A stretch of DNA of 64,000 nt from assembly GCA_963677495.2 (NCBI GenBank), contig CAXXOU010000004.1, positions 96,001 through 160,000 of the forward strand, read 5' to 3'. A program made the translations under genes and the position numbers. Shown piece after piece: positions 2,018-60,866 of this stretch (position 1 is the first letter of the stretch; the number at the start of each line of letters is the position of its first letter). This DNA is from Candidatus Cloacimonadales bacterium (GTDB taxonomy: Bacteria; Cloacimonadota; Cloacimonadia; Cloacimonadales; JAFGVF01). The notes under the pieces are model-generated. The model had not been told where the DNA came from, made no database searches, and saw only the letters and a list, made by a program, of their open reading frames with translations.

Positions 2018-2210
2018 CAAAACGTAGTCATCTCACTGTTCTCCCACTGTGCACGCACTGTGAACCCAGTGAAACAGTGGGTTGGCAGTGCCTTCACAGT
2101 GCGTGCACAGTGCAGACACAGTGGGTGGGTGGAAACTGGAATAAAAGAGAGTGAAAAGGGCAAAAAATGTCGCTAAGTTCTTGGTAAAGGCACTGTGTAT
2201 GTCTCTTTAG
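2018..2210. repeat. ~190-bp dispersed palindromic element, copy 1 (11-bp-phased CACTG/CAGTG hairpin)
   Basis: Perfect 20-bp inverted repeat CACTGTGCACGCACTGTGAA (2045-2064) / TTCACAGTGCGTGCACAGTG (2093-2112). Homologous to 38081-38275. Confidence 0.9.
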
Positions 2211-2730
2211 GACTTGCTCCGCAACGAAGTGTGGGGCGAGAACGAAATTCAGAGATATGCGACTTCGAAGTGCATTTCAGGAAGTCCGTTGCCTTATCTG
2301 GCGGACAAACTCCCTGAAATGCTGTAAGTCATTGCAAAAGCCACTGTGTATGTCTCTCTGAGCGAAGTTAATGAAGTGAAACGAAATGAACGAAGTCGAA
2401 CCGACGACCAACGGGAGGAGCTCGTAAGCCGATAGGCGCACAACTTCCGGGTCGCTCAGGTGGCTTTAGAGAATTTATGATAGAGTATTGACTTATCTTT
2501 TAGTGTTTTCCTTCGGAAAATAGCTTTTCATTAGTTGGGAGACTAAAGCTATCGGTGAGTTCCCTCTACTCGTTCATACTTCACTCGATCGGGATGAGAG
2601 GCTTTGCGGTCACCCTTACGACCAACGGGAGTTCAGGGATTTGCGTACTTCGAAGTGCATTTTAGGAAGTCCGTTGCTTTATCGGGCCGACAAACTCCCT
2701 GAAATGCGGTAAATTATTGTAGTATAACAG
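2211..2730. repeat. Mosaic cluster of REP-like palindromes
   Basis: Direct repeat 'tgcg(t)acttcgaagtgcattt(c/t)aggaagtccgttg...acaaactccctgaaatgc' at ~2258 and ~2642. CGACCAACGGGAG motifs at ~2405 and ~2619. CTGAGCGA...TCGCTCAG stem. Confidence 0.75.
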
Positions 2731-2804
2731 TAATCTACTGTTAACATATATGTTAGATGATATGATTGGTAGCTTGTAACTTAGAAGTAAATACAAATAA
2801 CTCT

Positions 2805-2833
2805 TTGACAGAAAATGAGCTATGATATAATAT
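2805..2833 (+). promoter_or_regulatory. Putative sigma70 promoter of the tilS operon
   Basis: TTGACA at 2805-2810, followed by TATAAT (15-bp spacer) or TAATAT (17-bp spacer). Confidence 0.6.
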
Positions 2834-2864
2834 AACATGACAAAGAAAATAGGAAGGTTTAAAC

Positions 2865-4295
2865 ATGACTTACAGTGAGAGTTTTTTAGCCAAATTCGAA
2901 GAATACGCTTTAAAAGAAAAGCTCTTTTCAGATAATGACAAACTACTTGTAGGGGTCTCCGGTGGGGCAGATTCGATAGCGTTATTGTATGCACTTTACC
3001 AACTTAGTATTAAGTATCAGCTCTTTCTGTTAGTGGCACATGTTAATTATAGATTAAGGGGAAAAGAATCTCAGGCGGATGAGAAATTTGTGAAGAACTT
3101 CTGTTTTGATCGCAATATATCCCTTGTAATAAAAGACCAGAAACTTGATCCGGAGCAACCCGGATTAGAAGATAAAGCACGTCAGATAAGGTTAGATTTC
3201 TTCAAGAAACTTTCCCCTAAATATGGTATAAAGGCGATTGCTCTTGGGCATCATAAAGAGGACCAGGCAGAAACTGTGCTCATGAAAGCACTCAGAGGAG
3301 CAGGCTACACCGGTTTAAAAGGTATACAGCCAAAGAGTGAGGATATCATACATCCACTTCTACCATTTTCTAAAGATGAGATAAAGCAATACCTTACAGA
3401 ACAGGGAATCGAATGGCGTGAAGATAAATCCAATGCTGAGAATGAATTTACCAGAAACAAGCTTAGAAATCAGATGATCCCTTGGATTAAAGAAAACCTT
3501 AATCCTAACATTATCGATCAATTGAACCTTCTTGGTAGCATTTTTGCCGACACAGATGAGTTTATGTATGAGTCAGCTAAGCATAAGTTTAGGCACCTTA
3601 GAGAACTCTCAAAAGATGGTAAAACTATCTTCTCTATTCCTGATCTCAGACGTGAAAACAGTAGTTTGCTCTTTTATGTTTTTAGACTTGCTTATGCATA
3701 TTACAGCTTTACAGAGAAAGATTTCTATTTTAATAACTATAAAGAGATAGTGAACATCATGGACTCAGAAGCCAGTAAGTATATTACGCTTCCGCACGAA
3801 GTTTATGTTGTGAAAGAGTATGATAAGCTTATATTTACAGATGAAGATCCTATCTTCCAACCGGATGAAACAGAGAAGACTATTGATAGTATCAGAAGCA
3901 GATTCAGTTTCGGTGACTATATCTTTAGTATGAAGAAGCTAAAAATGCTCCCTAAAGGCCAACCTTTCCTAGATAAGAATGTTGCATATTTAGATTATGA
4001 AAGTGTTACTTTTCCGTTAGTTGTACGTTACAGAACTGATGGTGACAGCTTTGTTCCTTATGGTATGGTTGGAGAGAAGAAACTGAAAGATTTTTTCATT
4101 GACGAAAAGGTGCCTAAATTTGACAGAGATAGGATACCATTAATAACAGATGGTGAAAATATTATTTGGGTTGGTGGACACCGAATTAGTAATAATTATC
4201 GGTTGAGTAACGAGTCCAAAGGAATTTTAATGATTAAGATGGAAAGGAAGAGCAGACTCAAACATCGCTCAGCCTCTCGATATGGGAATGAATAA
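2865..4295 (+). CDS. tilS: tRNA(Ile)-lysidine synthetase
   Basis: PP-loop SGGADS, HHKEDQAET, RNKLR and C-terminal KKLKDFFIDEKVP motifs. Conserved tilS-hpt-ftsH order. Confidence 0.97.
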   Translation: MTYSESFLAKFEEYALKEKLFSDNDKLLVGVSGGADSIALLYALYQLSIKYQLFLLVAHVNYRLRGKESQADEKFVKNFCFDRNISLVIKDQKLDPEQPGLEDKARQIRLDFFKKLSPKYGIKAIALGHHKEDQAETVLMKALRGAGYTGLKGIQPKSEDIIHPLLPFSKDEIKQYLTEQGIEWREDKSNAENEFTRNKLRNQMIPWIKENLNPNIIDQLNLLGSIFADTDEFMYESAKHKFRHLRELSKDGKTIFSIPDLRRENSSLLFYVFRLAYAYYSFTEKDFYFNNYKEIVNIMDSEASKYITLPHEVYVVKEYDKLIFTDEDPIFQPDETEKTIDSIRSRFSFGDYIFSMKKLKMLPKGQPFLDKNVAYLDYESVTFPLVVRYRTDGDSFVPYGMVGEKKLKDFFIDEKVPKFDRDRIPLITDGENIIWVGGHRISNNYRLSNESKGILMIKMERKSRLKHRSASRYGNE

Positions 4296-4831
4296 TGATT
4301 AATGATATAGAAAAGATATTGATGTCTGAAGCGGACATTGCTAACAAGATTAAAGAGCTTGGTGATAAGATAACTTCTGACTTTGCAGGTAAAGAACCAG
4401 TTTTTGTTTGTGTTCTAAAAGGTGCTTCTCTCTTTATGAGTGACCTTATTAGAGCTGTGAACCTTCCTTGTTCTATAGACTTTATGGCTATCTCAAGTTA
4501 TGGAGATAGTACTGTCTCATCCGGTGTGGTTAGAATTAAGAAAGATATCGACACTGATTTAACAGGTAAAGATGTTATAATTGTAGAAGATATAGTTGAT
4601 TCCGGTCTTTCACTTGAGTACATTCGCTCATATCTTGCAAAACACAACCCGAATTCCGTGAATGTTTGTGTTCTGCTTGATAAACCAAAAGCACATAAAA
4701 CTGAAGTGCATATTGACTATGTCGGTTTTGAAGTTGGTAACGAGTTTGTTGTTGGGTATGGACTGGACTTTGCTAATAAATATAGAAATCTTCCCTATAT
4801 CGGTATCTTAAAAGAGGAAGTTTATAGATGA
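4295..4831 (+). CDS. hpt: Hypoxanthine phosphoribosyltransferase
   Basis: VLKGA, PRPP-binding [11 protein letters not shown] and FVVGYGLD motifs. TAATG overlap with tilS. Confidence 0.97.
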
Positions 4832-6884
4832 ACAACGAACAAGACCCAAAGCAGAATAAAAAGATGCCTAATCCCTTTAACCAGAAGCGTTCAAAGAACC
4901 TGACTTTCTGGATAGTGCTTATCCTCCTGATAGTAGTTCTCTATCAGATGTTCGGAATGAGTAGAGGTAAGGTAGTCGAAATTGACTACACTAATTTTGT
5001 GACAAAAGTGAACTCTCAGCAGATAGAGGAAGTTATGTTCATGGAGCAGGATCTCATGATCAAAGATGTTGCAGGAACTAAGTACCATACATATCTTCCA
5101 CCAGAGACAACCGGACTAACAGAGATGTTGGTGGAAAATGGTGTAATGGTTAAATCAACAAAACCATCTATTTGGCGTGGACTTATTTGGAATCTTTTAC
5201 CAATCATTCTTCTGATAGGATTCTGGTTATTCATGATGAGAGGTATGAATAACAATAACAGTAGAGCTTTTAGTTTTGGAAAAAGCAAAGCACGCCTTTA
5301 TAAGGGTGATAAGACCAGAATAACATTCAAAGATGTTGCCGGAGTTGAGGAAGCTAAAGAGGAGCTTGAGGAGATTGTGGATTTCCTTAAAGACCCTAAG
5401 AAGTTTCAGAAACTCGGAGGTCGTATCCCACGTGGTGTACTTCTTGCAGGCAGACCGGGTACAGGTAAAACCCTTTTAGCAAAAGCGGTAGCAGGAGAGG
5501 CTAAAGTTCCTTTCTTCACAATTAGTGGTTCTGACTTTGTTGAGATGTTCGTAGGTGTGGGTGCAGCTCGTGTAAGAGACCTTTTTGAACAAGCAAAACG
5601 CAATGCACCATGTATTGCTTTTATTGATGAAATTGACGCAGTTGGTCGTCATCGTGGATCAGGACTCGGTGGTGGACATGATGAGAGAGAGCAGACACTT
5701 AACCAGCTTCTTGTTCAGATGGACGGTTTTGAAGAGAATGATGCTGTTATCATTATTGCTGCAACTAATAGACCTGATATTCTAGACCCTGCTCTTCTGA
5801 GACCGGGTCGATTTGACAGACAGGTTATGGTTGACCTACCTGATATTAACGGTCGCTATGAGATTCTCAAAGTGCATTCGAGAAAAGTTCCATTAACTGA
5901 CGATGTTAATCTGAAAGTTATTGCTCGTGGTACACCTGGATTCAGTGGTGCTGACCTTGCAAACCTTGTTAATGAAGCAGCCCTTATTGCTGCTAGAAAA
6001 AGTAAAGCAGGTATCGAAGCTGATGACTTTGAAGATGCAAAAGATAAGGTAACACTTGGAAAAGCTAAGAAGAGTCGTGTAATCAGTGAAGATGAACGCA
6101 GAGTTACTGCTTACCATGAGGTTGGTCATGTACTTTGCTCTATCTTCCAGGAGAAGAACTGAAACCTGTTCATAAAGTAACTATCATTCCACGTGGTTTC
6201 ACAGGTGGTGCAACTCACTATATGGGTGATGACAAATCAAACTATTCACGAGAATATCTCTTCCAGATGATTGTTAGCCTTCTTGGTGGCAGAGCTGCTG
6301 AAGAGGTGAAGTTCAAAGAGGTAACCACCGGTGCCGGTAATGATATTGATAGAGCTACTGATTTAGCTAAAAAGATGGTTACAAATTGGGGTATGAGTGA
6401 GAAAGTTGGACCAATCCGTATTGGTAAACAGCAAGAGGAAGTATTCCTTGGTAAAGAGATTGGTCATCGTGATTTCTATAGTGATGACACAGCACGGGTG
6501 ATTGATTCTGAGATTAGAGCCTTAATCGATAATGCACATAGTACAGCTTTAAGAATAATGAGCGAAAACTCAGAGCTTATGGATACTTTATCTGAGAAGC
6601 TTCTTGTGACTGAGACCTTGAATACTGACGAGATTTTTGATATTATCTTTGAGAGCTGTAAACCTGAAATGCGTGAGCTTGTGGAGAAGAAGTTCCAGAA
6701 AGCTAGTGAAATGCGATTTGATGACAGGCTAGAGCAGGAGAAGAAAGAGAATACTATAGAATCTGAGCAACCTGACCTTTTTAGTGATGATGAGATTGAT
6801 GAACTTACTGAGACTCTCGTAAATGAAGAGGTCTCTAATGATGAAACTAAGGTTGAGGATGAGAAAGATAAAACTGAGGATTAG
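4828..6884 (+). CDS. ftsH: ATP-dependent zinc metalloprotease FtsH, split by one frameshift near 6150-6165 (ORFs 4828..6162 and 6135..6884)
   Basis: Two TM helices, Walker [25 protein letters not shown] and HEVGH in the first [23 protein letters not shown] and GAGND continue in the second frame. Confidence 0.95.
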
Positions 6885-6906
6885 AATCCTCTTCCAATAG
6901 ATATTC

Positions 6907-6943
6907 AAGCCCTGACCGGCTTAGTTCGGTCACGGCTTTTTTT
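6907..6943 (+). terminator. Intrinsic terminator after ftsH
   Basis: AAGCC-C-TGACCGG / TCGGTCA-C-GGCTT stem followed by a T run. Confidence 0.7.
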
Positions 6944-6968
6944 GTAATTAATACCTAAGGAGAAATAG

Positions 6969-8431
<1,463 letters not shown>

Positions 8432-8432
<1 letters not shown>

Positions 8433-9349
8433 TGTCCATTAGTGATCATAAAGTCTTAGACCCGCAGAAAACTGCGGGTCTGAACAATTATCTCTTCTTT
8501 CTGAAGATTGAGAAAGGGCTTAGCCCTAATAGTATAGAAAGCTATAAACGTGACCTTCTTGATTTTCTCTTGTATGATGACTTTGCAAAGAAGCTTGATA
8601 AATACACATCTGATGATGTTTTAAACTATCTCGTTAGCCTTCAAGAGATAGGTCTGATGAATACATCCATTGCAAGAAAGAGAAGTGCTCTTAAGTCATT
8701 CTTCCTTTTCCTCAAAGATGAGGGAGAGGAGATAGATGTAGACTTCGATACTATCCCATCTATTAAATACGGTCAAAAACTTCCGGAGATACTTAGTGTT
8801 GACCAGATGTTGCAACTACTTAGAGCTGTAGAACCAACAGATCATACACCTCTTAGAAACAGAGCAATGCTGGAATTACTCTATGCTACAGGAATGCGTG
8901 TCTCAGAGATGTTATCGCTTAGTGTTCATAACATAGACTGGCAGGAAAGGGTTGTGCTGATTCATGGCAAAGGTCGTAAGCAACGTATTGTACCAATGGC
9001 AGATATAGCTTTTAATTATGTTGAGAAGTATAGATTGGAATCACGACCATATTTCAAGAAACACAACGATACAGACATCCTCTTCTTAAACAGATTCAGT
9101 AACCAAATGAGTCGCATGGGTTTTTGGAAGATCGTGCAGGAATCAGCTAAAAAGGCAGGCTTGCGAGTCCATATCTCTCCCCATACTTTTAGGCATAGTT
9201 TCGCAACTCATCTTTTGGAAGCCGGTGCCAACCTTAGAATAGTTCAAGAGCTACTCGGACATTCCAGTCTTAATACAACACAAATCTATACAAACATTGA
9301 TACTTCCCACTTAATTGAGGTACATAAGCAATATCATCCTCGCGGGTAA
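8432..9349 (+). CDS. xerD: Site-specific tyrosine recombinase XerD-like
   Basis: LLYATGMRVSE, HGKGRKQR, SPHTFRHSFATHLL, LLGH, TTQIY and C-terminal YHPR. TAATG-coupled to guaB. Confidence 0.9.
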
Positions 9350-9446
9350 GTCTACTATAATATCTATAGCTACTTTACCAAAAACAATTGACAATATAAG
9401 CTATATCAAAAACATATTCTTAAGAAATAAACACTAGGAAAGAGAT

Positions 9447-9782
9447 ATGTTTAATTTGAATGGAAAGAAATATCCATGCTGCACCAGCCTTACAATGGCT
9501 GTTATAGGTGGCAAATGGAAGTCTGTAATCTTGTACCACCTTATGGAAGGTCCTCTCAGATATAGTGAGCTAAGAAATAAAATAGAAGGTATAACAGAGA
9601 GAACCTTGAGTATACAGCTTAAAAAACTTGAAGAGGATGGGATTGTCTCTCGTAAAGTTTACGTAGATTTCGCACCAATCAAGGTTGAATATGCCCTCAC
9701 AGAATGTGGAGAGACTCTAAAGCCACTGCTTAATTCGATTGCTGAGTGGGGTGAACAATACGCTAACTGTAAGTTGCACTAG
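9447..9782 (+). CDS. HxlR-family winged-helix transcriptional regulator
   Basis: IGGKWKSVIL...LRYSEL...ITERTLSIQLKKLE...KVEYALT signature. Confidence 0.92.
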   Translation: MFNLNGKKYPCCTSLTMAVIGGKWKSVILYHLMEGPLRYSELRNKIEGITERTLSIQLKKLEEDGIVSRKVYVDFAPIKVEYALTECGETLKPLLNSIAEWGEQYANCKLH

Positions 9783-9822
9783 AGCAGCTACAATATGTAG
9801 AAGTAATACTTCTAGCATACAC

Positions 9823-9903
9823 TGGGTACGCAGACATCTTGTCCGCATTAAATGGGTACCCCGGCATCTTGCCGGGAAAAAGGCAGCGGACAAGTTGTCG
9901 ACG
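9823..9903. repeat. REP-like palindrome cluster (GGGTAC + hairpin)
   Basis: GGGTACGCAGACATCTTGTCCGC, GGGTACCCCGGCATCTTGCCGGG and an inverted unit GCGGACAAGTTGTC. Confidence 0.7.
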
Positions 9904-10037
9904 AAACAAGTATAATCTTTTTTGGGAAGATGATACCTTTCACTATTGATTAACCTCAAAGAATTAAGGGAGTTTGCCGGAACTTCATGATAATGAAGTG
10001 AAAGCCGACTTCCGTGATTCTTTGAAGTGGCGGGATA

Positions 10038-10111
10038 AACGCCCCGGAGAGACGTTTTACGTAATTCAGCGGTCTCGGCTGAGAAACCAACGCCCCAAAG
10101 AGACGTTTTAC
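10038..10111. repeat. 74-bp REPIN-like element, inverted copy of 16332-16405
   Basis: Its reverse complement matches 16332-16405 at 67/74 positions (hand alignment). It is built of two AACGCCCC..GAGACGTTTTAC units around a TCAGC..GCTGA hairpin. Confidence 0.85.
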
Positions 10112-10115
10112 GTTC

Positions 10116-14665: not shown

Positions 14666-14708
14666 ATAATTACTAATTAGTAATTTCTCATCCCTTGATC
14701 AACAAGCT

Positions 14709-14808
14709 ATGGAGTGCACCAACTGCGTAGGTGCGTCTTGTCACACAACTATAATTTGCTATGTTCCGCTATTCCCTCAACTCCCATTCGGTCGCTATGG
14801 TGCCAGCT
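14709..14808. repeat. REP-like units shared with the 59.5-60.6 kb cluster
   Basis: TATGGAGTGCACCAACTGCGTAGGTGCGTCTTGTCAC has one mismatch to 59506-59541. AACTCCCATTCGGTCGCT is a reverse-strand member of the CGACCAACGGGAG family. Confidence 0.75.
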
Positions 14809-14812
14809 TAGT

Positions 14813-18819: not shown

Positions 18820-19030
18820 GATATAACATTCATACTAACATTCATACTACTACCAATCAACTTCTCCTCCTTACTTCATTGCCTTAAAAACCTAAAATCT
18901 CGCTAGTTCCTCCCTTTAGCCTCCCTAGACCCTCCCTATGAACCCCTAAAGTTATCCACATCGTGTGTATAACTTCTCCAAGTGTAAAACCACAGTTTTG
19001 TAGTAGAGCAATGATAGAGCAATTAATCGG
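18820..19030. repeat. 11/12-bp-phased tandem micro-repeat tract centred on an inverted DnaA-box-like pair
   Basis: AACATTCATACT x2 (18825, 18837). CCTCCCT at 18909, 18920, 18931. TTATCCACA-TCG-TGTGTATAA at 18952-18972. TAGAGCAAT at 19004 and 19015. Confidence 0.75.
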
Positions 19031-35244: not shown

Positions 35245-35475
35245 AGTACATCTCCTTTCTAGAATGGTTAGACAAGTTTATCGCAACTTATATATAACTA
35301 CATGATAAACCTAATGATAACTTATACAAAAATGAAGAGAAGAAGTTCCATTGTCAATGTAATAATTGTTTGCTAAAAGATTTATGAATAGAATAATGAT
35401 GTGAGTGCCACTATTTACTAGCACTCACATCATATATTATTTTTTCTTAATCTAAATATCTAATTCACTTATTTG

Positions 35476-37860: not shown

Positions 37861-38080
37861 AATTTGCTCCCTCATTTCTACTAAAACAAAGTATGTTTCC
37901 TGTATAAAATATGTTTCTATTTCTATTGTGCAAACAAAATATATATAATTCTGGATTTAACCGACTGTGTCGGTTTGTCTTATTATGTTTAGTTAAATTA
38001 GCATGTAAAAAACTAGTTCATTCCAGCAACTTTCTTTTCTAGTGAGATAGGTATCTATGCAGTTGATGCCACCCATTAGA

Positions 38081-38410
38081 CAAAACGCAGTCATCCCACT
38101 GTTTTCCCACTGTGCACGCACTGTGAACCCACTGAAACAGTGGGTTGGCAGTGCCTTCACAGTGCGTGCACAGTGCAAACGCAGTGCGTTGGAAGATAGA
38201 GCAGTAAAAGTGAGAAAAAAGGACAATAAATATAGCTAAATTGTTGCAAAACACGCTGTGTATGTGATTCTTAAGCTGTCACCATTACGACCATCGGGAG
38301 TTCGGGGAAATGCGACTTCGAAGTATAATTCCATTTCCCCAAGCTCCTTCCAGTCACACAGGTGACTGGAATTAGAAGTAAGTTATTGTAAATATCACTG
38401 CGTATCTTCT
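38081..38410. repeat. ~190-bp palindromic element, copy 2, followed by a REP-like module
   Basis: Homologous to 2018-2210. CACTG at 38097, 38108, 38119, 38130 and CAGTG at 38138, 38149, 38160, 38171, 38182. It continues with 'tcacc.ttacgacca.cgggagttc.ggga..tgcgacttcgaagt', as at ~2610-2660. Confidence 0.9.
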
Positions 38411-39796: not shown

Positions 39797-40178
39797 CGAT
39801 TAGCCTTGATCGGATTGAAAGTATTGCATGAGTCCTCTCTTGCACATAGCTTGATAAAGCTATTAATACTCCATTTTGTTAAGTTGTAAATACAGTTTAA
39901 ATATTTCCACGCTAATTCCAGTCAGTGGCAATTGCCGACTTTGTCGGCACAGCAACTCAGGAGAGTCGCAGTACAAACCGATTAGCCTTGATCGGATTGA
40001 AAGTATTGCATGAGTCCTCTCTTGCACATAGCTTGATAAAGCTATTAATACTCCATTTTGTTAAGTTGTAAATACAGTTTAAATATTTCCACGCTAATTC
40101 CAGTCAGTGGCAATTGCCGACTTTGTCGGCACAGCATCTCAGGAGAGTCGCAGTACAAACCGATTAGCCTTGATCGGA
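39797..40178. repeat. Tandem repeat, 182-bp unit x2 plus 18 bp
   Basis: Units begin CGATTAGCCTTGATCGGA at 39797, 39979 and 40161. I found one substitution between the copies (gcaactc/gcatctc). Confidence 0.95.
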
Positions 40179-44569: not shown

Positions 44570-44690
44570 CTCTGGAATTACTCTGGACTAACGAGTATAT
44601 GAAAAGTAAATATATCCCATATTAAACTTATAACTATCCTATATGCTCATATAGGTTTCATATAAGAGTCATATAGGATACTTATAAGGA
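44570..44690. repeat. Helically phased micro-repeat folded into an inverted repeat
   Basis: CTCTGGA at 44570 and 44581. TCATATA at 44647, 44658, 44669. 19-bp IR CTTATAACTATCCTATATG (44627-44645) / CATATAGGATACTTATAAG (44670-44688), with 1 mismatch. Confidence 0.75.
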
Positions 44691-44808
44691 TTGTATGTGT
44701 ATTGCTCATGGGCATTTCAGGAAAATAAGCCGACTAAAACCAGATAGATTGAAAAACAGTTTGGTTAATCCGTGGAAAAGTATGTGATATGTAGGCTGGA
44801 AAGTAAAG

Positions 44809-48743: not shown

Positions 48744-48773
48744 TTTCATGGATTCCTGATTCTATTACTACGT

Positions 48774-48897
48774 CTTCATGTCTGCTTCATAATTCTCGGG
48801 ATACACTCGGGAATCTCCCGGGACTCTCTCGGGAATCACTCGGGGCTTTACTCGAGAAATTCCCCAGAAATTCCCTCCTAATTCGCTTTTAATTCCC
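48774..48897. repeat. 11-bp-phased micro-repeat tract
   Basis: CTTCAT at 48774 and 48785. C(T/C)CGGG at 48795, 48806, 48817, 48828, 48839. AATTC at 48858, 48869, 48880, 48891. Confidence 0.85.
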
Positions 48898-49055
48898 GTG
48901 TATTAAGATAGTGAAGTAATAGGGATAAGATTGAACATTAAGAAGAGGATGTGAATAGTTAGTATTTTTTGTTTTTGCTACTAGCTTTTGCTATCAATTT
49001 GTTCTTTGCAATAAGGACAAAGCCTGTAATTGAATTAGTCACATTTAAGAAATGC

Positions 49056-49089: not shown

Positions 49090-49102
49090 TGCAATAAATT
49101 AG

Positions 49103-49708: not shown

Positions 49709-49865
49709 TGGAAACTCCTTCCTTTTTTGTATGATATTATAACTATTTATCTTGAGTTACCCAAAACTTAAGCTTTAAAGTGTTAATTGTAAGATGTTCA
49801 TTATCATTTATTGATGATTTGACATAAGAGAGCAGAATTTAATAATAAGACATGGAGTCAAAACA

Positions 49866-50348
49866 ATGTTGTTAGAGTTGAAGAAGTTTTTCATTATAGT
49901 TGTTGCTATTTCAATAACTAATTGGCTTCATTGCAAAAACATTGTATATCGGCCTAAACCAACAGTTTATATAGGTCCTATAGAGAAAAGTAAGTTATAT
50001 GATATTAGCAATTATTATATAACATACAAGGAAGGATTATACGTAAAAAAATTAGCATTGACTGATCTCTTTCCTGAACATTCGATGTTTTGGGATTACT
50101 ATGAAGACAGTTATGATTTTGTGCAGAAGTATTATTATGATGACTTATATAAAACAACTTTACCGTTAAACATAACTATAAGAGTAAACCTTAGAGAGTA
50201 TGTAAAAGACAGTCATTTTATGACATTCAGTATGCCGATTGATATTGAAACGAACAAATACATCAAAAAGAGTATGATGTTTCTTAGAGATATCTTCAGT
50301 CCAAACTTTAGAAGTAGTAAAAGCAGACTTAGGGGTGAAAATGAATAA
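49866..50348 (+). CDS. Hypothetical exported protein
   Basis: GGAG RBS, hydrophobic N-terminus, overlaps the uvrB start. No family recognised. Confidence 0.6.
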
Positions 50349-52350: not shown

Positions 52351-52368
52351 AAAACTATAGTATATAGT

Positions 52369-52401
52369 AAAACAGCTACTCCAAACGGAGTAGCTGTTTT
52401 T
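52369..52401. terminator. Bidirectional terminator between uvrB and the cyclase gene
   Basis: AAAACAGCTACTCC-AAAC-GGAGTAGCTGTTTTT. Confidence 0.9.
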
Positions 52402-52403
52402 GT

Positions 52404-54290
52404 TTATCTTCTAATAGCGATTAACTCGTAAATTTTAACCGGTATGTTCTTCCCTTTAACTTTAATCTCGTCTAAGTAATCAACAACAACTTGGTCTTTG
52501 ACCATCTCTAATGTGTGTTCACTAATAATTATCTTCTTCTTTGTATTATACTCTTTGTTAATTGCTTCGAGTCTGGCTCCAAGGTTTATATTATCTCCAA
52601 TAGCTGTATAATCGAAGATCTGTTCAGAACCTAGATTACCAACCACAGCTTTACCTGAGTTAACACCAATACCAATCTCAAAGATATCTCTACCTTGAGC
52701 TTTCCATTCACGATGCAATCGATCAAGAACATCTCGCATCTCAAGAGCAGTTTTACAAGCATTTAGAGCATGTTCTTCATCTTTGAGAGGAGTTCCGTAT
52801 AGAGCCATTATCTCATCACCAACAAACTTGTCGACAATACCTTTGTTTTTCTTTATCACTTCAACCATTGCTGTTAAATACTCACTGAGAATAGCAACTG
52901 TTGTTTCCGGTGTATGAGATTCGCTGTAAGTTGTGAAAGAACGAATATCAGAGAATAGTACTGATATTACTTGCTCAGAACCACCGTAAGTGAGCGACTT
53001 AGGGTTCTTAATCAGCTCATTAACAACTTCCGGAGCCATGTAACGCTGGAAGGCATTCTTAATGAACCTCTTCTCTTTAGCTGTAGAGATAAATGTAAAG
53101 ATAAGATTAAACACATAGCTAAGCAAGCAATAGAAGATGAATATTACAATCTGCCAAATCTCATTAGCATTGATAAATCTATGTATTCCCCAAATAATCA
53201 TACCGATAATAACTACAACAGTAATAATGATAGAGTACTGTGGTTTAATAAGTCTATTAACAATCTGCAATATAATAGCAATTATAATTAAAAGTGTAAC
53301 TATTGAGCCAAAGCTAACTTTGGATAGATACCGACCATCCTTTACCATTTGCAGGAAGTTGGCATGAATCTCTACTCCGGGTAGAGTCACCTTCTTATAA
53401 TTAAAAGGCGTATTAAAACTATCATGAAGCTCTGCAGTTGAGACACCTACAAAGACAGTTTTGTCCTTCAGCACTCCTTCTGATAAAAACTGGTTGAATT
53501 CATTAATCTGAAAGTCTTCTGTCTCAAACCCGGGCAATAGGAAGTTCTCATCATCAAGAATGGAAGAGAATGAGTAATATTTAAAAGTACCTTCAGCTCC
53601 ATAATAATTGATTGGAATACGTCTAGATTTATTATAAGGTATTTTGTAATTGTTTACATGCATGAAATCATCATTAACGCTTACATTATCTTGCCATTTC
53701 TCATTACTTTCCTCGCTAGCAAGTGCAACAATACCTAATGAATATACGCTTAAATCACCCTCTTTATCCAATAACGGGTAGTTTCTGATAAAACCATCAA
53801 CATCCGCACTCATGTTAACCATACCCCAAGGGGAGTTTGTGTGGAAGATTTGAGCAATAGGTGGGAGTAAACGAAAGACGCTTGTCGCTTTCTTTTCTCT
53901 GATAACTTTACCGGCCCAGACAATGTTGTCATACTTAGCGGCTACAGCACCAAGCATATTGTCAGCATTGAAGTTGCTACTTTCAGTAAACTCAATATCG
54001 AATATTATCTGCTTAACACCAGCCCGTTCAAGATTGTCAACCATTCTGGCATAATACCCTCGTGGGAATGGCCATTGAGTATCAAGCATGCTAAATGTCT
54101 CATCATCTACAGAGACGATTACAATATCATCAGTAGTTGGGTGCTCTTCCCGAAGTCTGAAAAGGTAGTCCCAAGTCCAAAGGTTTATCTTGTGAAATGG
54201 GGGAGTCAGACTAAAAATAAGAGTGACTGCCAGTAGTATAGCTACGGCAGTCACTTGTGTCCCTATGGACTTAATGCTTTGGAGTTTCAT
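52404..54290 (-). CDS. CHASE2-domain class III adenylate cyclase
   Basis: CHASE2 motifs IVIVSVDDET, QWPFPR, FDIEF, DVDGFIR and PGVEIHAN, then 3 TM helices. Cyclase motifs LFSDIRSFT, VDKFVGDE and YTAIGDNINLGARLE. Confidence 0.95.
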   Translation of the reverse strand: MKLQSIKSIGTQVTAVAILLAVTLIFSLTPPFHKINLWTWDYLFRLREEHPTTDDIVIVSVDDETFSMLDTQWPFPRGYYARMVDNLERAGVKQIIFDIEFTESSNFNADNMLGAVAAKYDNIVWAGKVIREKKATSVFRLLPPIAQIFHTNSPWGMVNMSADVDGFIRNYPLLDKEGDLSVYSLGIVALASEESNEKWQDNVSVNDDFMHVNNYKIPYNKSRRIPINYYGAEGTFKYYSFSSILDDENFLLPGFETEDFQINEFNQFLSEGVLKDKTVFVGVSTAELHDSFNTPFNYKKVTLPGVEIHANFLQMVKDGRYLSKVSFGSIVTLLIIIAIILQIVNRLIKPQYSIIITVVVIIGMIIWGIHRFINANEIWQIVIFIFYCLLSYVFNLIFTFISTAKEKRFIKNAFQRYMAPEVVNELIKNPKSLTYGGSEQVISVLFSDIRSFTTYSESHTPETTVAILSEYLTAMVEVIKKNKGIVDKFVGDEIMALYGTPLKDEEHALNACKTALEMRDVLDRLHREWKAQGRDIFEIGIGVNSGKAVVGNLGSEQIFDYTAIGDNINLGARLEAINKEYNTKKKIIISEHTLEMVKDQVVVDYLDEIKVKGKNIPVKIYELIAIRR

Positions 54291-56678
54291 TTAGAACCTT
54301 TGTGAGATATAGAAATTCCAGTTAAATTCATTATAGTTAATATCTTCGATAGTGTCATTAGTGTAGTTCTTCAATCTTAAGTTAGTAGCAATCTTAGTTT
54401 TAGCCCAAGGTTTGTACTTAGCACCAATATTGAAGTAGTTGAAAGATTGCTCTTCGTCACCTGATAGCATTACGAATTTGAGATCAGTATAAGGAACAAG
54501 TTTGTTATCAAAGAAACCATATTCACTCCTGATACCGATTGAATTGCTACCTGTGTCTGTTGTCTCATCAAGAACAATGCTTTCTGAGTTTGACCAACCG
54601 TAATATAACTTTGTAGTTAATGGGAAAGTAGCAAACTTGTTAAGCATGGTGAAGTTAACATTGTTGAGTGTTATCTCATAAACATCATCAAGCTCATCGG
54701 TGTTTTTGCTATTAGAATATGTTACGTTAAATCTGGTAGGAGCGAATGTTAACTGTTTCCAAAAATAATTAGCTCCGACACTCATGTTTACTGATTTCTG
54801 GTTGAACTGTTCCACTTCTGTTTCATCATCTTCACCTATATTAGATGAAGTATCAAAATTCAGATTAAGAGATGTTACATCATGATATTGGAACACAAGC
54901 TGTCCAAAGTATCTGTTGAATGTAGTTGTTGTAGCTTTCTGTTCAGAAAGATTATCCTGATTCTTATTGTATCCACCGTAAAGATGCACCATGTTCTTTA
55001 TGTTTATCTTATCACTGATAGATAACTTCGATATATCATTCTGTAAGCCACTTGTAGAGAGAGATTTGAAACCTGATCCTATCTCTTCATATTCAACACT
55101 GATGTCGTTATGAAGAAGATAAGGATTCACAAAGGCTTTCAATGCGACACTGGACATACCGGGTTTATAAGGTTGTAAGTTTTCATTAATAATAATCAAA
55201 TCTTCGTAGTTCTCAGGGTCAATTTCAAAATCGAAAGCAAGAATATCAACGGAGTTGAAGTCAAATCTATCCTCCATCTCTTCTGAAGAGAAAGCTCCAT
55301 CAGTGATGTTACTGTTATAAAAGCTTATTGCAACTTCAGCACCCATACTTGATCTCTGTGAAGGTAGTGATAGTATGAAGTCAGAACCAAGAACTAAGTT
55401 GTCTTCAGGGAAAGCTGTCTGGGTTGTATCCGAGTCAGCATAGAACAAATAGTGCTCATCATCAAGGGAGTTTACATCGTCTCTTGTTTGTGAAAAATGT
55501 AATCCCCAAAGGAAGGCAGTATATTTGCTTCTGTCTGTTCCAAGCTCAAGACGTAATGCATGCATATCTCTTGCAAATGTACTATGCAGATTCTCATCAT
55601 CTTTGATTGCTCTTCTATTTTCACCTGTTGAGTACATGATTTTAATGAAGTGATAGTCAAGCTCAGCATGTACACCATAGATGTTACTATTGTTCATGTT
55701 ATAGCTTGAGTAGTTAGGAGTGTAATCACCCATAATAACTCTTAAGAATGGAATCTCCATATCAAACTTGATTCTATTGAATCTTTGAGTTGTTTCATTC
55801 TGCTTTGAATCACGATAAAAGTTTCCACGGAAGTCATACCAGAAACCTTTCTGATGGGCATTACTTGACCTAGAGTAAAGATTAAGATTAAAGGAAGCAT
55901 CATTATCTTTATTCGATAAGTTAGAATTATCATCTTTAGTTACTGAGAATATATTTGAGCGGAAGGTGGCATCACCATTAAGCTGGAATGGGAGCTCGAA
56001 AACCTTCTTGTCAGAGAATACTTTTGTTAAGTGCTTTCCGGTTAGTAGAAGGGTTCCATCTTTTAATCGAACTTGCATTTCACAAGAGTGCATTCCGGGT
56101 TTTACAGATGGGACTATTAACACCATCATGTTATCTGTAATTGTAGATCTGGATGTATAATCCTTACCATCAAAGAGAATCTTCATAGATTCTAAATCAA
56201 TATCATCTTGAACTGAGAAATAGGAAACAGAGAATACGAAATCCTCTTCTGCATCATGCTCTGTCTCAGGGCTTAGAATTAGCAATTCGCTACTTGATTT
56301 ATCGCACAAAATACCTACCGGATAAGGGTGTTGCTCAGGATTGAATCTAGGTAGAGATACTTTCACTTTATCCTTAGTCTCTGCTTCGAAATAGAATTCG
56401 AGACCTGTATCACAGTAAGCACTTAAAGGAAGCTCTGCGTTAAAGTCAGTTGCAGTACCTCCATCTTGATTTGCTTGAATCATTGTGAAACTTTCCTTAC
56501 CTACAGCTCTGTAGTAGAAGAATGCGTATTCAATATCCTCAATATTCTGCATCACAGAAACGCTAACCATGACATTACCATTATCTAAGTCAGTTATATA
56601 AGGTTCATCATAAAGAATAACCTCTGCAAACATCTGTAAAGTCATCAAAGTTAATACTAATACTAATAATTTCTTCAT
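54291..56678 (-). CDS. Predicted outer-membrane beta-barrel protein with N-terminal Ig-like domains
   Basis: Signal peptide, alternating amphipathic strands over the C-terminal ~570 aa, and a terminal aromatic beta-signal (WNFYISQRF). Confidence 0.7.
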   Translation of the reverse strand: MKKLLVLVLTLMTLQMFAEVILYDEPYITDLDNGNVMVSVSVMQNIEDIEYAFFYYRAVGKESFTMIQANQDGGTATDFNAELPLSAYCDTGLEFYFEAETKDKVKVSLPRFNPEQHPYPVGILCDKSSSELLILSPETEHDAEEDFVFSVSYFSVQDDIDLESMKILFDGKDYTSRSTITDNMMVLIVPSVKPGMHSCEMQVRLKDGTLLLTGKHLTKVFSDKKVFELPFQLNGDATFRSNIFSVTKDDNSNLSNKDNDASFNLNLYSRSSNAHQKGFWYDFRGNFYRDSKQNETTQRFNRIKFDMEIPFLRVIMGDYTPNYSSYNMNNSNIYGVHAELDYHFIKIMYSTGENRRAIKDDENLHSTFARDMHALRLELGTDRSKYTAFLWGLHFSQTRDDVNSLDDEHYLFYADSDTTQTAFPEDNLVLGSDFILSLPSQRSSMGAEVAISFYNSNITDGAFSSEEMEDRFDFNSVDILAFDFEIDPENYEDLIIINENLQPYKPGMSSVALKAFVNPYLLHNDISVEYEEIGSGFKSLSTSGLQNDISKLSISDKINIKNMVHLYGGYNKNQDNLSEQKATTTTFNRYFGQLVFQYHDVTSLNLNFDTSSNIGEDDETEVEQFNQKSVNMSVGANYFWKQLTFAPTRFNVTYSNSKNTDELDDVYEITLNNVNFTMLNKFATFPLTTKLYYGWSNSESIVLDETTDTGSNSIGIRSEYGFFDNKLVPYTDLKFVMLSGDEEQSFNYFNIGAKYKPWAKTKIATNLRLKNYTNDTIEDINYNEFNWNFYISQRF

Positions 56679-56681
56679 GCT

Positions 56682-57362
56682 TTACTCCTTAGACTCAAGC
56701 TCAATGTACTTAATGTTACCATCTGCATCACGGAGAGGAATCTTAATCTTTTGCGTACCTGCAATGTCATCTTTGATGTATTCCATTATCTCATCATTAA
56801 GTTTTGGTGTTGGGCCAATATTGACTTCTCCATCTGAACGAGACTCTGCAGTTTTACCGGGTTCTAGATTGAAACTTTTTCCCGTGACTGTGTTTTCTAC
56901 TTCAAGTAAGCCTTCAAACATGTGAATCCAAGTTGTTCCTTCCGGGTCAACAATGGTTAAGAATGTTGTTCCCTTTACAGACGCAACTGTGTTACTTGTT
57001 TCGATTCTGTATTGGTCTTTCATATGACTGTTTATCTTTGAAAAGATTTGCCCTGCTTCCAGTTTAGCCTTTTTTGCCAAAACTTCACCATCTTTAGTAC
57101 CATTTATAGTAACGATACTCCATGGGAATACTTTCAGTAAAGAGCCATTGTCCGTATATTTAACAGCAGCAAAGGACTTTTGCCCTGTTGTGAGTTTATC
57201 ATTATTTATGAGCAATTCACCTTTTTTAGCTGCTTGCTCTTCCTCTTCATTTCTTTGCAGAGAAACTGTACCTTTTGCTTGGAACAATAATGCTATTGGG
57301 TTCTCGGCAAACAGGCAAGTAAGTGCTATTAATAGTACGACTGATAGTAATATCTTTTTCAT
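56682..57362 (-). CDS. Exported FecR-domain protein
   Basis: Signal peptide, 'KGTV...G..L...D.L.TG..SFAAV...D.GS', 'IETSNTVASVKGTTF' and 'FEG.LEV'. Confidence 0.85.
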   Translation of the reverse strand: MKKILLSVVLLIALTCLFAENPIALLFQAKGTVSLQRNEEEEQAAKKGELLINNDKLTTGQKSFAAVKYTDNGSLLKVFPWSIVTINGTKDGEVLAKKAKLEAGQIFSKINSHMKDQYRIETSNTVASVKGTTFLTIVDPEGTTWIHMFEGLLEVENTVTGKSFNLEPGKTAESRSDGEVNIGPTPKLNDEIMEYIKDDIAGTQKIKIPLRDADGNIKYIELESKE

Positions 57363-57371
57363 GTTCACCTC

Positions 57372-58493
57372 CTACTCCTTAATCTCAACATTAACCGGCT
57401 TTGCAATGAATTCTGTAAGCTTCTTTATCGCATCTTCACCGGAAAGCCAGTTTTCTTCAGTCACAACTTGCTGAGTTGGTACCATTCCTTCGTCAAGAAG
57501 AGCGTTAATCTCAGGATTGTTTATTGATCTTAAAAGCTCAATTATCTTATCAGACAACTGATTAGTTTCGGAGGATGTGTCCTCTTCAAACCTAAAGACA
57601 TTGTAATCACTCTCAAGAGTAACTGCATCACCTGATGTTGAACTTTCAGTTATCATACCTGTACTTACTTTCCAGGCATAGTAATAACCGTCATTAAATG
57701 GAAGAAATTGCACATGGACATTTGACATTAAACCTTCAATCTCTGTGAAGAGTCTTCCTGAATAATCAAGCTCATGACCGACTAAATCATCTCTCAATTC
57801 ATACTCACGTATAGTGATCTTGAAATCATTAATCCCAGCAAGGTTTGTCTGCCAGCCAAACACTACAGTGTTATTGTTTAATATAGGGATGAAACCACCT
57901 AGTTTAGCTCCCGGTTGGTTCAAGAAGATAGAGTTAGAGTTAGTTACAATAAAGGTCATTGTATTAGAGCCTAACTCTGTATCCCCGATTTCATCATTCT
58001 CACCGGTTAGATCATAAGCAGTTAATGTAAATGTATAAGTACCATCAGGTAGTAGTCCTGTGTTCAATACTACATCTTCAAGCTCAGGTGCAACATCAAA
58101 CAGTGCATCAAGAGAGATACCGGAACCGGTTTGAGTGAAGTATTGAGTGTCCACACTTGAAAGTATATCTCTGTTGGTCACACTAATATTTCTCATATCC
58201 CAGACGAAGTCTCTAGTTATCAAATCATAATCAAGTAATGGAACACTTACTCTGTCCCAAAAAAACTTAACATTTAATCCAAAAGGCAGTTGGGTTTCAC
58301 CTGTTGCCGGAGTTGTAGTTATTGCCCAATCAAACACAGGTGGCTGTGCTAACGGTCTTTCCGGGTCTATCTGAGCCATATTGAATTGGTTGAACTCATT
58401 GACTCTTGGGCTTCCGCTAATCTGTACACTTTGCCCATATAAAAAGGCAAATGACATTGTTAAAACTATTAAACATATTAAAACTTTTTTCAT
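57372..58493 (-). CDS. Hypothetical exported beta-rich protein
   Basis: Signal peptide, LPDGTYTFTL and YYYAWKV (FN3-like end). Overlaps the ddl stop by 1 nt. Confidence 0.75.
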   Translation of the reverse strand: MKKVLICLIVLTMSFAFLYGQSVQISGSPRVNEFNQFNMAQIDPERPLAQPPVFDWAITTTPATGETQLPFGLNVKFFWDRVSVPLLDYDLITRDFVWDMRNISVTNRDILSSVDTQYFTQTGSGISLDALFDVAPELEDVVLNTGLLPDGTYTFTLTAYDLTGENDEIGDTELGSNTMTFIVTNSNSIFLNQPGAKLGGFIPILNNNTVVFGWQTNLAGINDFKITIREYELRDDLVGHELDYSGRLFTEIEGLMSNVHVQFLPFNDGYYYAWKVSTGMITESSTSGDAVTLESDYNVFRFEEDTSSETNQLSDKIIELLRSINNPEINALLDEGMVPTQQVVTEENWLSGEDAIKKLTEFIAKPVNVEIKE

Positions 58494-59413
58494 TATTCCC
58501 CCTTCATTCCGAAGTCTATTATTGTTTTTAAAAGCTCTTTAAAGCATATCCCTGCAGCTTTAGCTGACATAGGGGTTAAACTCAGTTCTGTCATACCGGG
58601 AAGTGTATTAACCTCTAGCAGATAGAACTTGTCTCCATCATAACGGAAGTCGATTCTCGCGTAGCCTTTGCATTCACAACGCTTAAACAACTTAACTGCA
58701 TATGATTGGACTTTTGTAATCTCTTCAGCTTCCAGTTCTGCAGGAGCAATGTACTCTGTTTTACCGGAAGTGTATTTATTCTTATAATCATACCAACCCT
58801 GTTTTGGTTTAATCTCAACAACAGGTTTAGCTTCTCCTCCTATTATTGTTACAGTCAACTCCCTACCGGGAATAAACTGCTCTATTAAAACATTATCATC
58901 ATACTGAAAGGCATCTGTGATTGCATCATCTAAAGTATCTTTTGATTTTACTAAAGAAATACCAACAGATGAACCTGCATTGTTAGGTTTAACTATTAAT
59001 GGGAAACCAATCTTGTTAAGCCTATCTTCCTCGAATGCATCCCCTCTTTGTAAGTATATATCTTCCGCTATAGGAATATCACATTCCTTAGCAATGAGTT
59101 TAGTTATATATTTATCCATCGTTAATACACATGCTTTGGCAGGACTCCCGGTAAACTTAATTCCGGACATCTCAAGGATAGCCTGAATGCGTCCATCCTC
59201 ACCTGCTCCACCATGTAGCCCGTTAAAAACGATGTCAGGATTAATAACCTGAATTGCATCAATTAAATTGCTTATAAGCTGATAATCAGCCGGGTCTATG
59301 ACTGTAACATAATACCCGTCGGAGCTCAACTGCTCCGCGATATTCTTCGCTGATATCAGCGATATCTCTCGTTCAGGAGAATTACCTCCTGATAAAACCA
59401 CTATTCTGTGCAT
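58493..59413 (-). CDS. ddl: D-alanine--D-alanine ligase
   Basis: GGNSPEREISL, LHGGAGEDG, KPNNAGSSVG, YDYKNKY and LEVNTLPGMT..SL.P. Confidence 0.97.
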   Translation of the reverse strand: MHRIVVLSGGNSPEREISLISAKNIAEQLSSDGYYVTVIDPADYQLISNLIDAIQVINPDIVFNGLHGGAGEDGRIQAILEMSGIKFTGSPAKACVLTMDKYITKLIAKECDIPIAEDIYLQRGDAFEEDRLNKIGFPLIVKPNNAGSSVGISLVKSKDTLDDAITDAFQYDDNVLIEQFIPGRELTVTIIGGEAKPVVEIKPKQGWYDYKNKYTSGKTEYIAPAELEAEEITKVQSYAVKLFKRCECKGYARIDFRYDGDKFYLLEVNTLPGMTELSLTPMSAKAAGICFKELLKTIIDFGMKGE

Positions 59414-59429
59414 ATAATACCTCTACTAA

Positions 59430-59457
59430 ATGCTATGCAATATAGATGCAATGTCAA
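59430..59457 (-). promoter_or_regulatory. Putative sigma70 promoter of the ddl operon
   Basis: TTGACA-16 bp-TAGCAT on the - strand. Confidence 0.5.
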
Positions 59458-59505
59458 GCAAAATGTGATTTAGTTTGTTTTGAATAAGGTTGTCAGATTC
59501 AAAAT

Positions 59506-60626
59506 ATGGAGTGCACCAACTGAGTAGGTGCGTCTTGTCACGAAACTCTTAAAGGAGTTCTTCAGAACTCTTTCGAAGCATCAGTAACCTGTACCTTAGA
59601 AATGGTCCATAGACATTTCGAATGCACTACGAAGTAGTTGACTTAAGATTACAAGAGCACCATTTCGAAGGAGATAATTCTCTCATTAATCTGAAGCAGT
59701 CACCAGTACGACCAACGGGAGTTTGGGGAAATGCGTACTTCGACTCAAAACGATTTCTTGTCTCAACACCTGTACCTTTGGAATGGTTGAACTACCTTCG
59801 GACTTGCGTTGTAGCGATAGCGTGACGCGAGAACGAAACCTGCTTCGAATGACGGAATTAGCAAATCACACTATCGTTGCAATTCACTTCTTCCTACTTC
59901 ATCAAGAGCATCTTATTGCTTTTTTGTTCCTTATCAGTCTTCACAACTGAGAAATACACCCCTGTCGTCACAGCAACTCAGGAGAGTCGCAGTACAACGT
60001 AGTGCGAGTGTCCACACTTGCACATAGCTTGAAAAGCTATATTGTGGAAGCTTATCGTGTACTGAAATTAGTATTGACTGAAGAGATGTCAGCTGTAGAG
60101 AACATACTTGGACTGTAATATTCTAAATTACGGTCAGTGGAAGCTGACGACTCTGTCGTCACAGCAACTCAGGAGAGTCGCAGTACAATGTAGTGCGAGT
60201 GCCCTCAATTGCTCAAAACTCCTTCAGCTTGTTTTTAGCCTTGAAAAGGCGTCTGTTCAATAGCCACATGCTTTGGCATGTGGTAAATGTAATCTAAGAA
60301 GATGTAGCCCTAAAGGGGCGTAAGATTAACATCTTAGGTAATTCGACACCCCTTCAGGGCTAATCTTGGCCTTGAACTTTGACCCCAAGCGACAAGTCGC
60401 ATGGGGCTATGAAAATACCATCAGTAACCTATACCTTTGGAATGGTTGAAAACCTTGCAAATGGTGCAATTCGAAGGAAGAAACTCCCCACCGTTAAAAC
60501 GCTACCCCTCTACAAGAGGGGAATGTCCAAGAGCACCATTTCGAAGGTCTAAGGACCGTTCGAAAGGTAGAATATTGCCATATTTCGCTATGAGTCCAAC
60601 TCCCATTCCGTCGCTTTGACTCCAGC
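59506..60626. repeat. ~1.1-kb mosaic cluster of REP/REPIN-like palindromes
   Basis: Contains the GGAGTGCACC..GGTGCG unit (59506), CGACCAACGGGAG (59710), two CTGTCGTCACAGCAACTCAGGAGAGTCGCAGTACAA copies (59962, 60153), GCCCTAAAGGGGC/CCCCTTCAGGGC units, and repeated 'acct.tacctt.g.aatggt' and 'agagcaccatttcgaagg' blocks. Confidence 0.8.
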
Positions 60627-60866
60627 TAACAATTTCCCACTAACAATTTTCCAAAATTTGCCCTTCTGCATCCCTTCTGGTTCTGTGACTAAAAAAGGTG
60701 TTTCAAAGGTTAGCCACAGGTGACCCTCTCGTGACCCTCTCGTGGAAGGGCACGATTTATCCACATCATGTGGATAACTTGAATATTTATGGAAAACTTG
60801 TCGTAGGCACGGGAGTAGCAGGGGTGCAGTAGGCTCATTTCCGGCTCAATTGAGTCTCAATTGAGT
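60626..60866. repeat. 11-bp-phased micro-repeat tract centred on a perfect inverted DnaA-box pair
   Basis: CCCTTCTG at 60661 and 60672. GTGACCCTCTC at 60720 and 60731. TTATCCACA-TCA-TGTGGATAA at 60757-60777. CTCAATTGAGT at 60845 and 60856. Confidence 0.8.

Follow-up and report, generated by a model that had tools for sequence, protein, structure and literature searches.

The window analysed here is a chromosomal stretch of 64,000 nucleotides from a Candidatus Cloacimonadales bacterium (contig CAXXOU010000004.1, positions 96,001 to 160,000; G000:C4:96001-160000). The genome, G000, contains 3.41 Mb, and its GC content is 37%. Several intergenic tracts of the window repeat a short core every 11 bp. 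These tracts belong to dispersed repeat families that are very probably read as double-stranded DNA by a protein. Our fuller account is tentative, with somewhat less than an even chance of being correct. It holds that the tracts are dispersed, non-coding elements of about 100 to 190 bp that differ between species, that they make up at least 11 families, and that their opposed arms serve as tracks for a mobilising enzyme. By kind they are dispersed repeats similar to miniature inverted-repeat transposable elements (MITEs) and repetitive extragenic palindromic (REP) sequences, with a design, opposed arrays of cores at 11-bp intervals, that appears to be undescribed. An earlier note on this DNA knew of no named element class with such an architecture. 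The literature that we searched, of limited extent, contained no description of dispersed bacterial repeats built on 11-bp arrays.

The earlier note had listed six main intergenic sites with short cores at exact 11-bp spacing. Direct reading, Tandem Repeats Finder (TRF) and the exact positions bear this out (Table 1). The perfect 20-nt inverted arms described for the first site are fully complementary (2045-2064 and 2093-2112), and the arms at 44627-44645 and 44670-44688 match at 18 of 19 positions, as claimed. A weaker case at 35274-35326 was rejected because the repeats there are spaced by 12 or 23 and the tract recurs nowhere else in the genome; TRF assigns it period 12 with 23% indels. Two further repeats, CTCAATTGAGT at 60845/60856 and TAGAGCAAT at 19004/19015, contain two units each and are weak alone. 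The motifs had been described as locus-specific. BLAST of the window against the genome placed each confirmed tract in a dispersed family with 6 to 68 other copies, so the motifs are specific to families and not to loci.

The 11-bp period extends across the genome in excess of chance. We used a strict detector that requires an exact 5-mer at least three times at one fixed spacing. It retrieved 292 loci at period 11 from G000, compared with 7 at period 10, 34 at period 12, and 5 at period 13. Merging gave 284 loci, and 245 of these were intergenic. TRF retrieved 554 period-11 arrays genome-wide (171 at period 10, 195 at period 12) and 78 arrays at period 22 (24 at period 21, 37 at period 23). 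Within intergenic DNA as delimited by crude open reading frame (ORF) calls, it retrieved 418 arrays at period 11 against 63 at period 10 and 18 at period 12. The peak at lag 11 for which the earlier note had proposed to look is present. Intergenic identity in G000 is 0.2934 at lag 11 (z = 39.5 against 15 mononucleotide shuffles), 0.2845 at lag 22, and 0.2797 at lag 33; lags 10 and 12 gave 0.2754 and 0.2739. The autocorrelation of coding DNA from G000 contained no lag-11 peak, only a 3-base period. Masking of the strict arrays with 60-bp margins (284 arrays, 31.9 of 431.6 kb) lowered the lag-11 value to 0.2802. This is a residual excess over lag 10 (0.2755) and lag 12 (0.2747).

Repeats of other short periods were also retrieved. 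Period-7 arrays are frequent, with 36 per 400 kb in the related genome G013 and 54 genome-wide in G000. A period-7 example in G000 contains AGCATAC four times and then AGCTTAT four times (C1:461180, C1:524026). A second relative, G014, contains 32 period-9 arrays per 400 kb.

The tract between lon and the NUDIX gene was also found in Logan contigs. Summed depth over 37974-38241 was about 380 to 1965 in four runs, against about 9 to 26 over the flanks; all four runs are from one sample, possibly the source sample, and so do not give independent support. An excess of this kind agrees with many genomic copies and excludes an artefact of assembly.

Of the 284 strict arrays, 12 are singletons and the others form 11 multi-copy families of 122, 47, 35, 21, 19, 10, 6, 5, 3, 2, and 2 arrays. 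When TRF units were clustered, the tail was longer, with 108 unit clusters that include 62 single ones. The family consensuses agree with the earlier observation that period and architecture are conserved and sequence is not, as the same plan is built on unrelated cores. Most families contain 3 to 5 direct units followed by 3 to 5 inverted units. Examples are ACCACGG four times then CCGTGGT four times, CGGGA five times then TCCCG five times, CTTGG four times then CCAAG five times, and CACTG three or four times then CAGTG five or six times. Unit counts range from 3 to 6 within families.

The CACTG element contains 185 bp with sharp ends. It is present in 64 full-length copies with a mean identity of 85.8%. 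The CCAAG element has 11-nt terminal inverted repeats, CAGCAGTAATT...AATTACTGCTG; in 30 copies they bound exactly 128 bp. Other copies differ from these by whole 11-bp units, with one of 117 bp and two of 139 bp. In the GTGACCCTCTC family, the terminal inverted repeats measure about 32 nt and consist in turn of 11-bp CCCTTC units. Terminal inverted repeats were seen in some families (CCAAG and GTGACCCTCTC) and are not demonstrated for each.

DnaA-box words are associated with some of the arrays. An inverted pair of perfect words, TTATCCACA..TGTGGATAA, is present at 23 places in the genome, inside two array families. In the window, a DnaA-box-like inverted pair (TTATCCACAT..TGTGTATAA, 18952-18972) lies beside the CCTCCCT units, and the palindrome of the GTGACCCTCTC element (60757-60777) is a second such site. 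The genome contains 154 perfect DnaA-box words, and 19 of them are within 150 bp of a strict array. These zones cover 2.8% of the genome, which makes the words 4-fold enriched there. The motif ATTGCTC/GAGCAAT was considered as a terminal motif common to all families and was dropped, being present beside a minority of elements only. A four-unit CAGTG pattern matched 61 viral and more than 115 genomic stretches in sequence collections. These were mostly other tandem repeats in unrelated taxa and were uninformative.

Among 31 related genomes, the CACTG element was retrieved from 4, which belong to a single genus. For array counts, seven relatives were sampled at 400 kb each and G000 at 380 kb; these are single genomes, and kin among them are not independent. 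G000 contained 38 period-11 arrays. G001, a sister species of the same genus, contained 17. G013, from another family of the order, also contained 17, and G014, from a further family, contained 13. The remaining relatives contained one array (G004), none (G006), one (G024), and two (G027). Periods 10 and 12 gave 0 to 5 arrays in each sample. The architecture is therefore present in three of the seven relatives. G013 and G014 use other cores in the same direct-then-inverted plan (CTAGA, TACGGTA (TACGG), and GAAACAG in G013; CCGTAAC in G014). The architecture is a patchy trait of the order and not of one sequence family.

Turnover is visible between G000 and G001. The region upstream of lon contains a CACTG element in G000 and a CGGGA element in G001. 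The repeat mosaic before tilS is absent from G001. The sequences on either side of an array locus in G001 mostly have their counterparts at separate places in G000. Of 15 array loci compared between G001 and G000, nine are in unaligned intervals between synteny blocks, two are colinear, and four could not be assigned. Unaligned intergenic DNA hosts both arrays and block ends, so no conclusion is drawn from the nine. The two genomes are heavily rearranged, with 41 colinearity breaks in 400 kb.

The earlier note had offered, as one explanation, a mechanism that generates 11-nt duplications whatever the sequence. Tandem duplication by one-turn slippage, or by repeated insertion and excision footprints, would leave the arrays as scars. 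The whole-unit length differences of the CCAAG element, the 3 to 6 units within families, the 12 singletons, and the residual lag-11 excess after masking are all consistent with it. Against it, 272 of the 284 strict arrays are in multi-copy families, cores and unit numbers persist in another species, and coding DNA lacks the lag-11 signal. Slippage does not explain opposed inverted arms, and G004, G006, and G024 contain only 0 to 1 arrays per 400 kb. Single units are gained and lost, as the CCAAG lengths indicate. Duplication is not the main cause, because the arrays are inherited within families and their cores persist across species. As an account of the tracts it is highly improbable.

Comparison between the two species separates the cores from the DNA between them. 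Twenty CACTG copies from G001 align over 100 nt without an indel. Their cores are near-invariant and their spacings are kept (11 and 22, with 8 and 19 at the turn), while their spacers differ. Gene-level DNA identity between G000 and G001 is about 78 to 80%. Core positions pair across the CACTG arms in 93% of cells, as they should when both arms repeat a single word in opposite orientation. For spacer positions the figure is 56% in G001 and 52% in G000, and changes break pairs. No compensatory double changes were found across the CACTG arms in the copies from G000 and G001. Cores and phasing are thus kept while spacers drift uncompensated, which fits a protein that reads the duplex on one face and not a hairpin. 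There is no selection for a hairpin in these copies.

The earlier note had suggested that selection holds the sites to a single helix face, for example for nucleoid-protein filaments. This is the best-backed of its readings. Its suggestion of a cruciform or slipped structure as a general feature did not hold. The CGGGA element folds no better than shuffled sequence (z = -1.1; 25 of 200 shuffles did as well), and the uncompensated CACTG spacers speak against it as well. Hairpin potential is family-specific and not class-wide. The feature common to all families is the phasing, not the fold.

A second alternative is that the elements are REPINs (REP doublets that form hairpins) moved as single-stranded DNA by Y1 (HUH) transposases similar to REP-associated tyrosine transposases (RAYTs), with the 11-bp period as a by-product of the hairpin. 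The copies in the window give it some support, since two CACTG copies (z = -8.1 and -7.5) and the TCATATA copy (z = -7.25) fold as single strands well beyond shuffles. G000 also encodes 14 matches to Y1_Tnp (RAYT/IS200-like), 13 of them above the Pfam cut-off, and multi-copy repeats flank almost all of these genes. A CACTG element lies 126 bp upstream of one Y1-like gene. Otherwise, the repeats immediately beside 13 of the 14 genes are short hairpins of the classic type from other families and not 11-bp arrays. Within a 2.5-kb neighbourhood, 10 of the 14 have an 11-bp array, roughly as the background density would predict. Between G000 and G001, the Y1-like genes close to CACTG elements share 27 to 28% identity and are therefore not orthologues. 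Y1 number is not tied to arrays. G001 contains 13 matches and G013 contains 15, against 13 in the array-free G006 and 4 in G004 with its one array. Together with the CGGGA folding result and the CACTG spacers that do not covary, this makes the REPIN explanation improbable.

The REP, BIME (bacterial interspersed mosaic element), and REPIN-RAYT systems of Proteobacteria are otherwise among the closest known (PMC3116915). Their repeats and the elements here are short, non-coding, intergenic, and lineage-restricted, with tens to hundreds of copies and several families per genome. Inverted doublets and mosaic clusters are also shared (PMC3116915), and the Y1 genes of G000 are repeat-flanked. REPs are hairpins recognised as single strands, whereas the elements here contain exact 11-bp core arrays with free, non-covarying spacers. 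Unlike in REP-RAYT systems, no cognate Y1 gene flanked by its own repeats was seen for the array families in the flanks of 13 of the 14 genes, with the one CACTG exception.

The reading that we favour places the protein at the ends of a mobile element. Each arm may offer a track along which molecules of a sequence-specific protein assemble next to one another as a short filament. The two opposed arms would then be brought together. The documented model is the transposon IS1535, whose end contains phased repeats in sub-terminal position. At its left end, a transposase filament nucleates on four helically phased direct motifs of 9 bp, and capture of the second end follows (PMC6188088). Such ends of the IS607 family are the best documented model for the working of the arrays. 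Both contain helically phased, direct, short motifs. The elements here would be 'two ends without a middle', mobile DNA that is not autonomous and depends on an enzyme supplied in trans. IS607 elements encode a serine transposase, TnpA. The elements here differ from them in being gene-less, with 3 to 5 units in both arms and inverted termini in some families, and the array genomes are without a Resolvase-domain gene. That the arrays are end-binding sites of a mobilising enzyme is possible, with the doubts prevailing.

Several results weigh against this reading. No binding protein for the arrays was identified in this analysis. Serine recombinase (Resolvase, PF00239) matches number zero in G000, G001, G013, and G014, and the one match retrieved is in the array-free G006. 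No autonomous parent with the same ends was found among multi-copy transposase elements, of which only an IS21-family and an IS3-family element were retrieved; the whole proteome was not scanned against Pfam. When the flanks of CCAAG copies were joined, 0 of 30 matched an uninterrupted site elsewhere, and no target-site duplication was seen. The comparison with G001 revealed no colinear empty site for any array element. Identity among the CACTG copies is only about 86%, which gives no sign of recent movement. The orientation of the CACTG copies is also biased. By crude ORF calls, the neighbouring gene on the array side points away in 49 of 64 cases, against 31 of 63 on the other side (about p = 2e-5 for 49 of 64 against one half, by our own arithmetic).

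The orientation bias favours the main rival, which it fits as well as or better than the end-binding reading. Here the arrays would be tracks for host nucleoid-associated or regulatory proteins, for example polymerising ribbon-helix-helix or winged-helix proteins. They would be kept to shape DNA or tune promoters, and their dispersal would be secondary. Conservation of cores and phasing fits such host architectural or regulatory proteins equally well. Other points on its side are that 199 of 329 array-adjacent genes turn their start toward the array and that DnaA-box words are enriched near arrays. At least 11 cores would demand as many specificities, which argues against it. The families are genus-restricted and are swapped between species at one locus, unlike conserved regulatory sites. 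The neighbours are unrelated housekeeping genes, and the 64 CACTG copies adjoin unrelated genes. We consider the host-protein explanation unlikely, though well short of improbable.

A small-protein family bears on the same alternative. It has 22 members of 143 to 195 aa in G000 (for example L009:895-1356, minus strand). No member has a Pfam match, 1 of 10 has a weak PHROGs match, and a search of the protein atlas returned unnamed Cloacimonadota clusters only. The AlphaFold model has a mean predicted local distance difference test (pLDDT) score of 78.7. It has no Foldseek match in the PDB at E <= 0.001. The best VIA-align Z was 3.9, below the trustworthy level, and small ribbon-helix-helix domains were numerous in the weak matches.

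Matches to this family number 23 in G000, 11 in G001, 9 in G013, and 7 in G014, against 1 in G004, 2 in G006, and 0 in G024. The host-protein explanation thus gains a family with 7 to 23 copies in the four array-rich genomes and 0 to 2 in three array-poor ones. The link breaks in G027, with 15 weak matches and 2 arrays. As a predictor of array status, the count held in three of four further genomes (G014 rich, G006 and G024 poor) and failed in G027. The earlier note had proposed a test for a co-occurring gene family. The small-protein count followed array density in seven of eight genomes, and the Y1 number did not. Members are only weakly enriched beside arrays. Four of 22 are within 500 bp of one, against 7.5% of all genes, or about 2.4-fold. 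The family is no more than a lead, since the correlation could also arise from a general burden of mobile DNA. A bolder proposal makes these 'phased-array elements' an undescribed Cloacimonadales class in which each core family recruits its own small-protein paralogue and the filaments organise or rearrange the chromosome. They would then form a diversifying protein-plus-site system and not ordinary selfish DNA. We regard this proposal as a long shot.

Two insertion sequence families occur near the arrays. The IS3-family element is present in 6 copies of 1,357 bp with ends TGTATTGTCC, which are unrelated to the array ends. All six copies are 0 to 30 bp to the right of a CCAAG element, at six loci (for example G000 C4:220988-222344). 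This placement suggests that the element may target CCAAG elements. IS1397 is an insertion sequence that targets REPs. ISPpu9 of Pseudomonas putida also targets REPs (PMC8450116). The IS3-family copies resemble these REP-targeting insertion sequences; the likeness concerns the inserts and not the arrays themselves. The IS21-family element (istA, istB) is present in 17 copies with 23-bp multiple terminal repeats, also unrelated to the array ends (for example L007:1175-3534). An 11-bp array lies within 150 bp of six of the 17 copies, compared with 13.7% for points chosen at random in intergenic DNA. The copy at C4:1304911-1307270 is inside a CACTG element.

The elements were also compared with bacterial MITEs, such as the Correia/NEMIS elements, and with arrays of the iteron or centromere type, such as parC/ParR of plasmid R1 and the RepB sites of pMV158. 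MITEs share a length of 100 to 200 bp, an intergenic position, lineage-specific expansion, and, in some families, terminal inverted repeats. On the other side, no target-site duplication or autonomous parent was found in the comparisons above, and phased arrays are no described MITE feature in the literature searched. RepB binds three tandem 11-bp direct repeats on one helix face (PMC1851628). The exact 11-bp direct repeats are a feature shared with this system, in which the protein contacts lie on one face and multimers bind cooperatively (PMC1851628). Iteron and centromere sites are single and are located on a plasmid beside the gene for their own binder. Here there are hundreds of chromosomal sites in at least 11 families with housekeeping neighbours.

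If a protein does polymerise on these tracks, they would provide many natural, sequence-diverse cases of one-face, one-turn DNA recognition in an uncultured phylum. They would in that case also stand for repeat spread outside both the RAYT/REP and the classic transposase/MITE schemes. With 60-bp margins, the arrays occupy about 7% of the intergenic DNA. They break short-read assemblies, attract insertion sequences, and are often in unaligned intervals between blocks. They therefore matter for the assembly and comparison of Cloacimonadota genomes.

Table 1. Repeat elements and modules of the window, with other genomic copies retrieved by BLAST
Feature	Position	Strand	Structure	Location	BLAST segment and other copies
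CACTG element copy	2018..2202	+	185 bp; CACTG 2034/2045/2056, CAGTG 2067, 2075/2086/2097/2108/2119 (array to 2123), AT-rich tail		2006-2720, up to 68
Further multi-copy repeat modules, mosaic	2203..2720			Between CACTG element and tilS	2006-2597 and 2606-2720, up to 68
CCTCCCT/TAGGGAGGG element copy	18867..18975		CCTCCCT 18909/18920/18931; three units, 18909-18938		18867-18975, about 33 (about 33-35 copies)
CACTG element, second copy	38081..38265	+	Arrays 38097-38186; CACTG 38097/38108/38119/38130, then CAGTG 38138/38149/38160/38171/38182	Between lon and NUDIX gene	38053-38404, 61-67
TCATATA element, low-copy	44596..44700		TCATATA 44647/44658/44669 (to 44675) within imperfect palindrome		44596-44700, about 6
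CGGGA element copy	48787..48911		Five CGGG(A) units 48797-48845 (CGGG 48797/48808/48819/48830/48841), then inverted arm TTCCC/AATTC 48858-48895 (AATTC 48858/48869/48880/48891)		48787-48911, 13-15
Other multi-copy modules, not 11-bp arrays	59685..60659			Fill ddl-helicase gap	59685-60846, up to 66
GTGACCCTCTC element copy	60660..60846		Terminal inverted repeats of 11-bp CCCTTC units, 60661-60692 (CCCTTCTG 60661/60672), right arm diverged; GTGACCCTCTC twice, 60720/60731 (to 60741); palindrome TTATCCACATCATGTGGATAA 60757-60777		59685-60846, up to 66

The window encodes tilS, ftsH, IMP dehydrogenase, lon, L21/L27, RNase G, an Fe-hydrogenase, uvrB, and ddl. The tracts neighbour tilS, lon, the NUDIX gene, the hydrogenase gene, uvrB, ddl, and the helicase gene. 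Rfam at gathering thresholds and a tRNA scan retrieved four tRNAs only from the window, with no known RNA family over the tracts. Many window proteins contain type IX secretion sorting domains. ftsH is present in two overlapping ORFs, 4828-6162 (AAA part) and 6135-6884 (peptidase M41 part), which may be due to a frameshift or a sequencing error. The DEAD-box helicase gene is also in two ORFs, about 100 bp apart (61036-61338 and 61440-62639).

Two other repeats were retrieved from the window. The first, at 14702-14810, is a multi-copy intergenic repeat with 19 to 27 copies that was absent from the list in the earlier note. The second, at 39797-40178, contains a 182-bp unit 2.1 times at 99% identity. 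It belongs to a REP-type family of about 58 to 60 copies and contains no 11-bp array. The blocks that flank this cluster are 24 bp apart in G001, which makes it a clean empty site and the sole clean one found.

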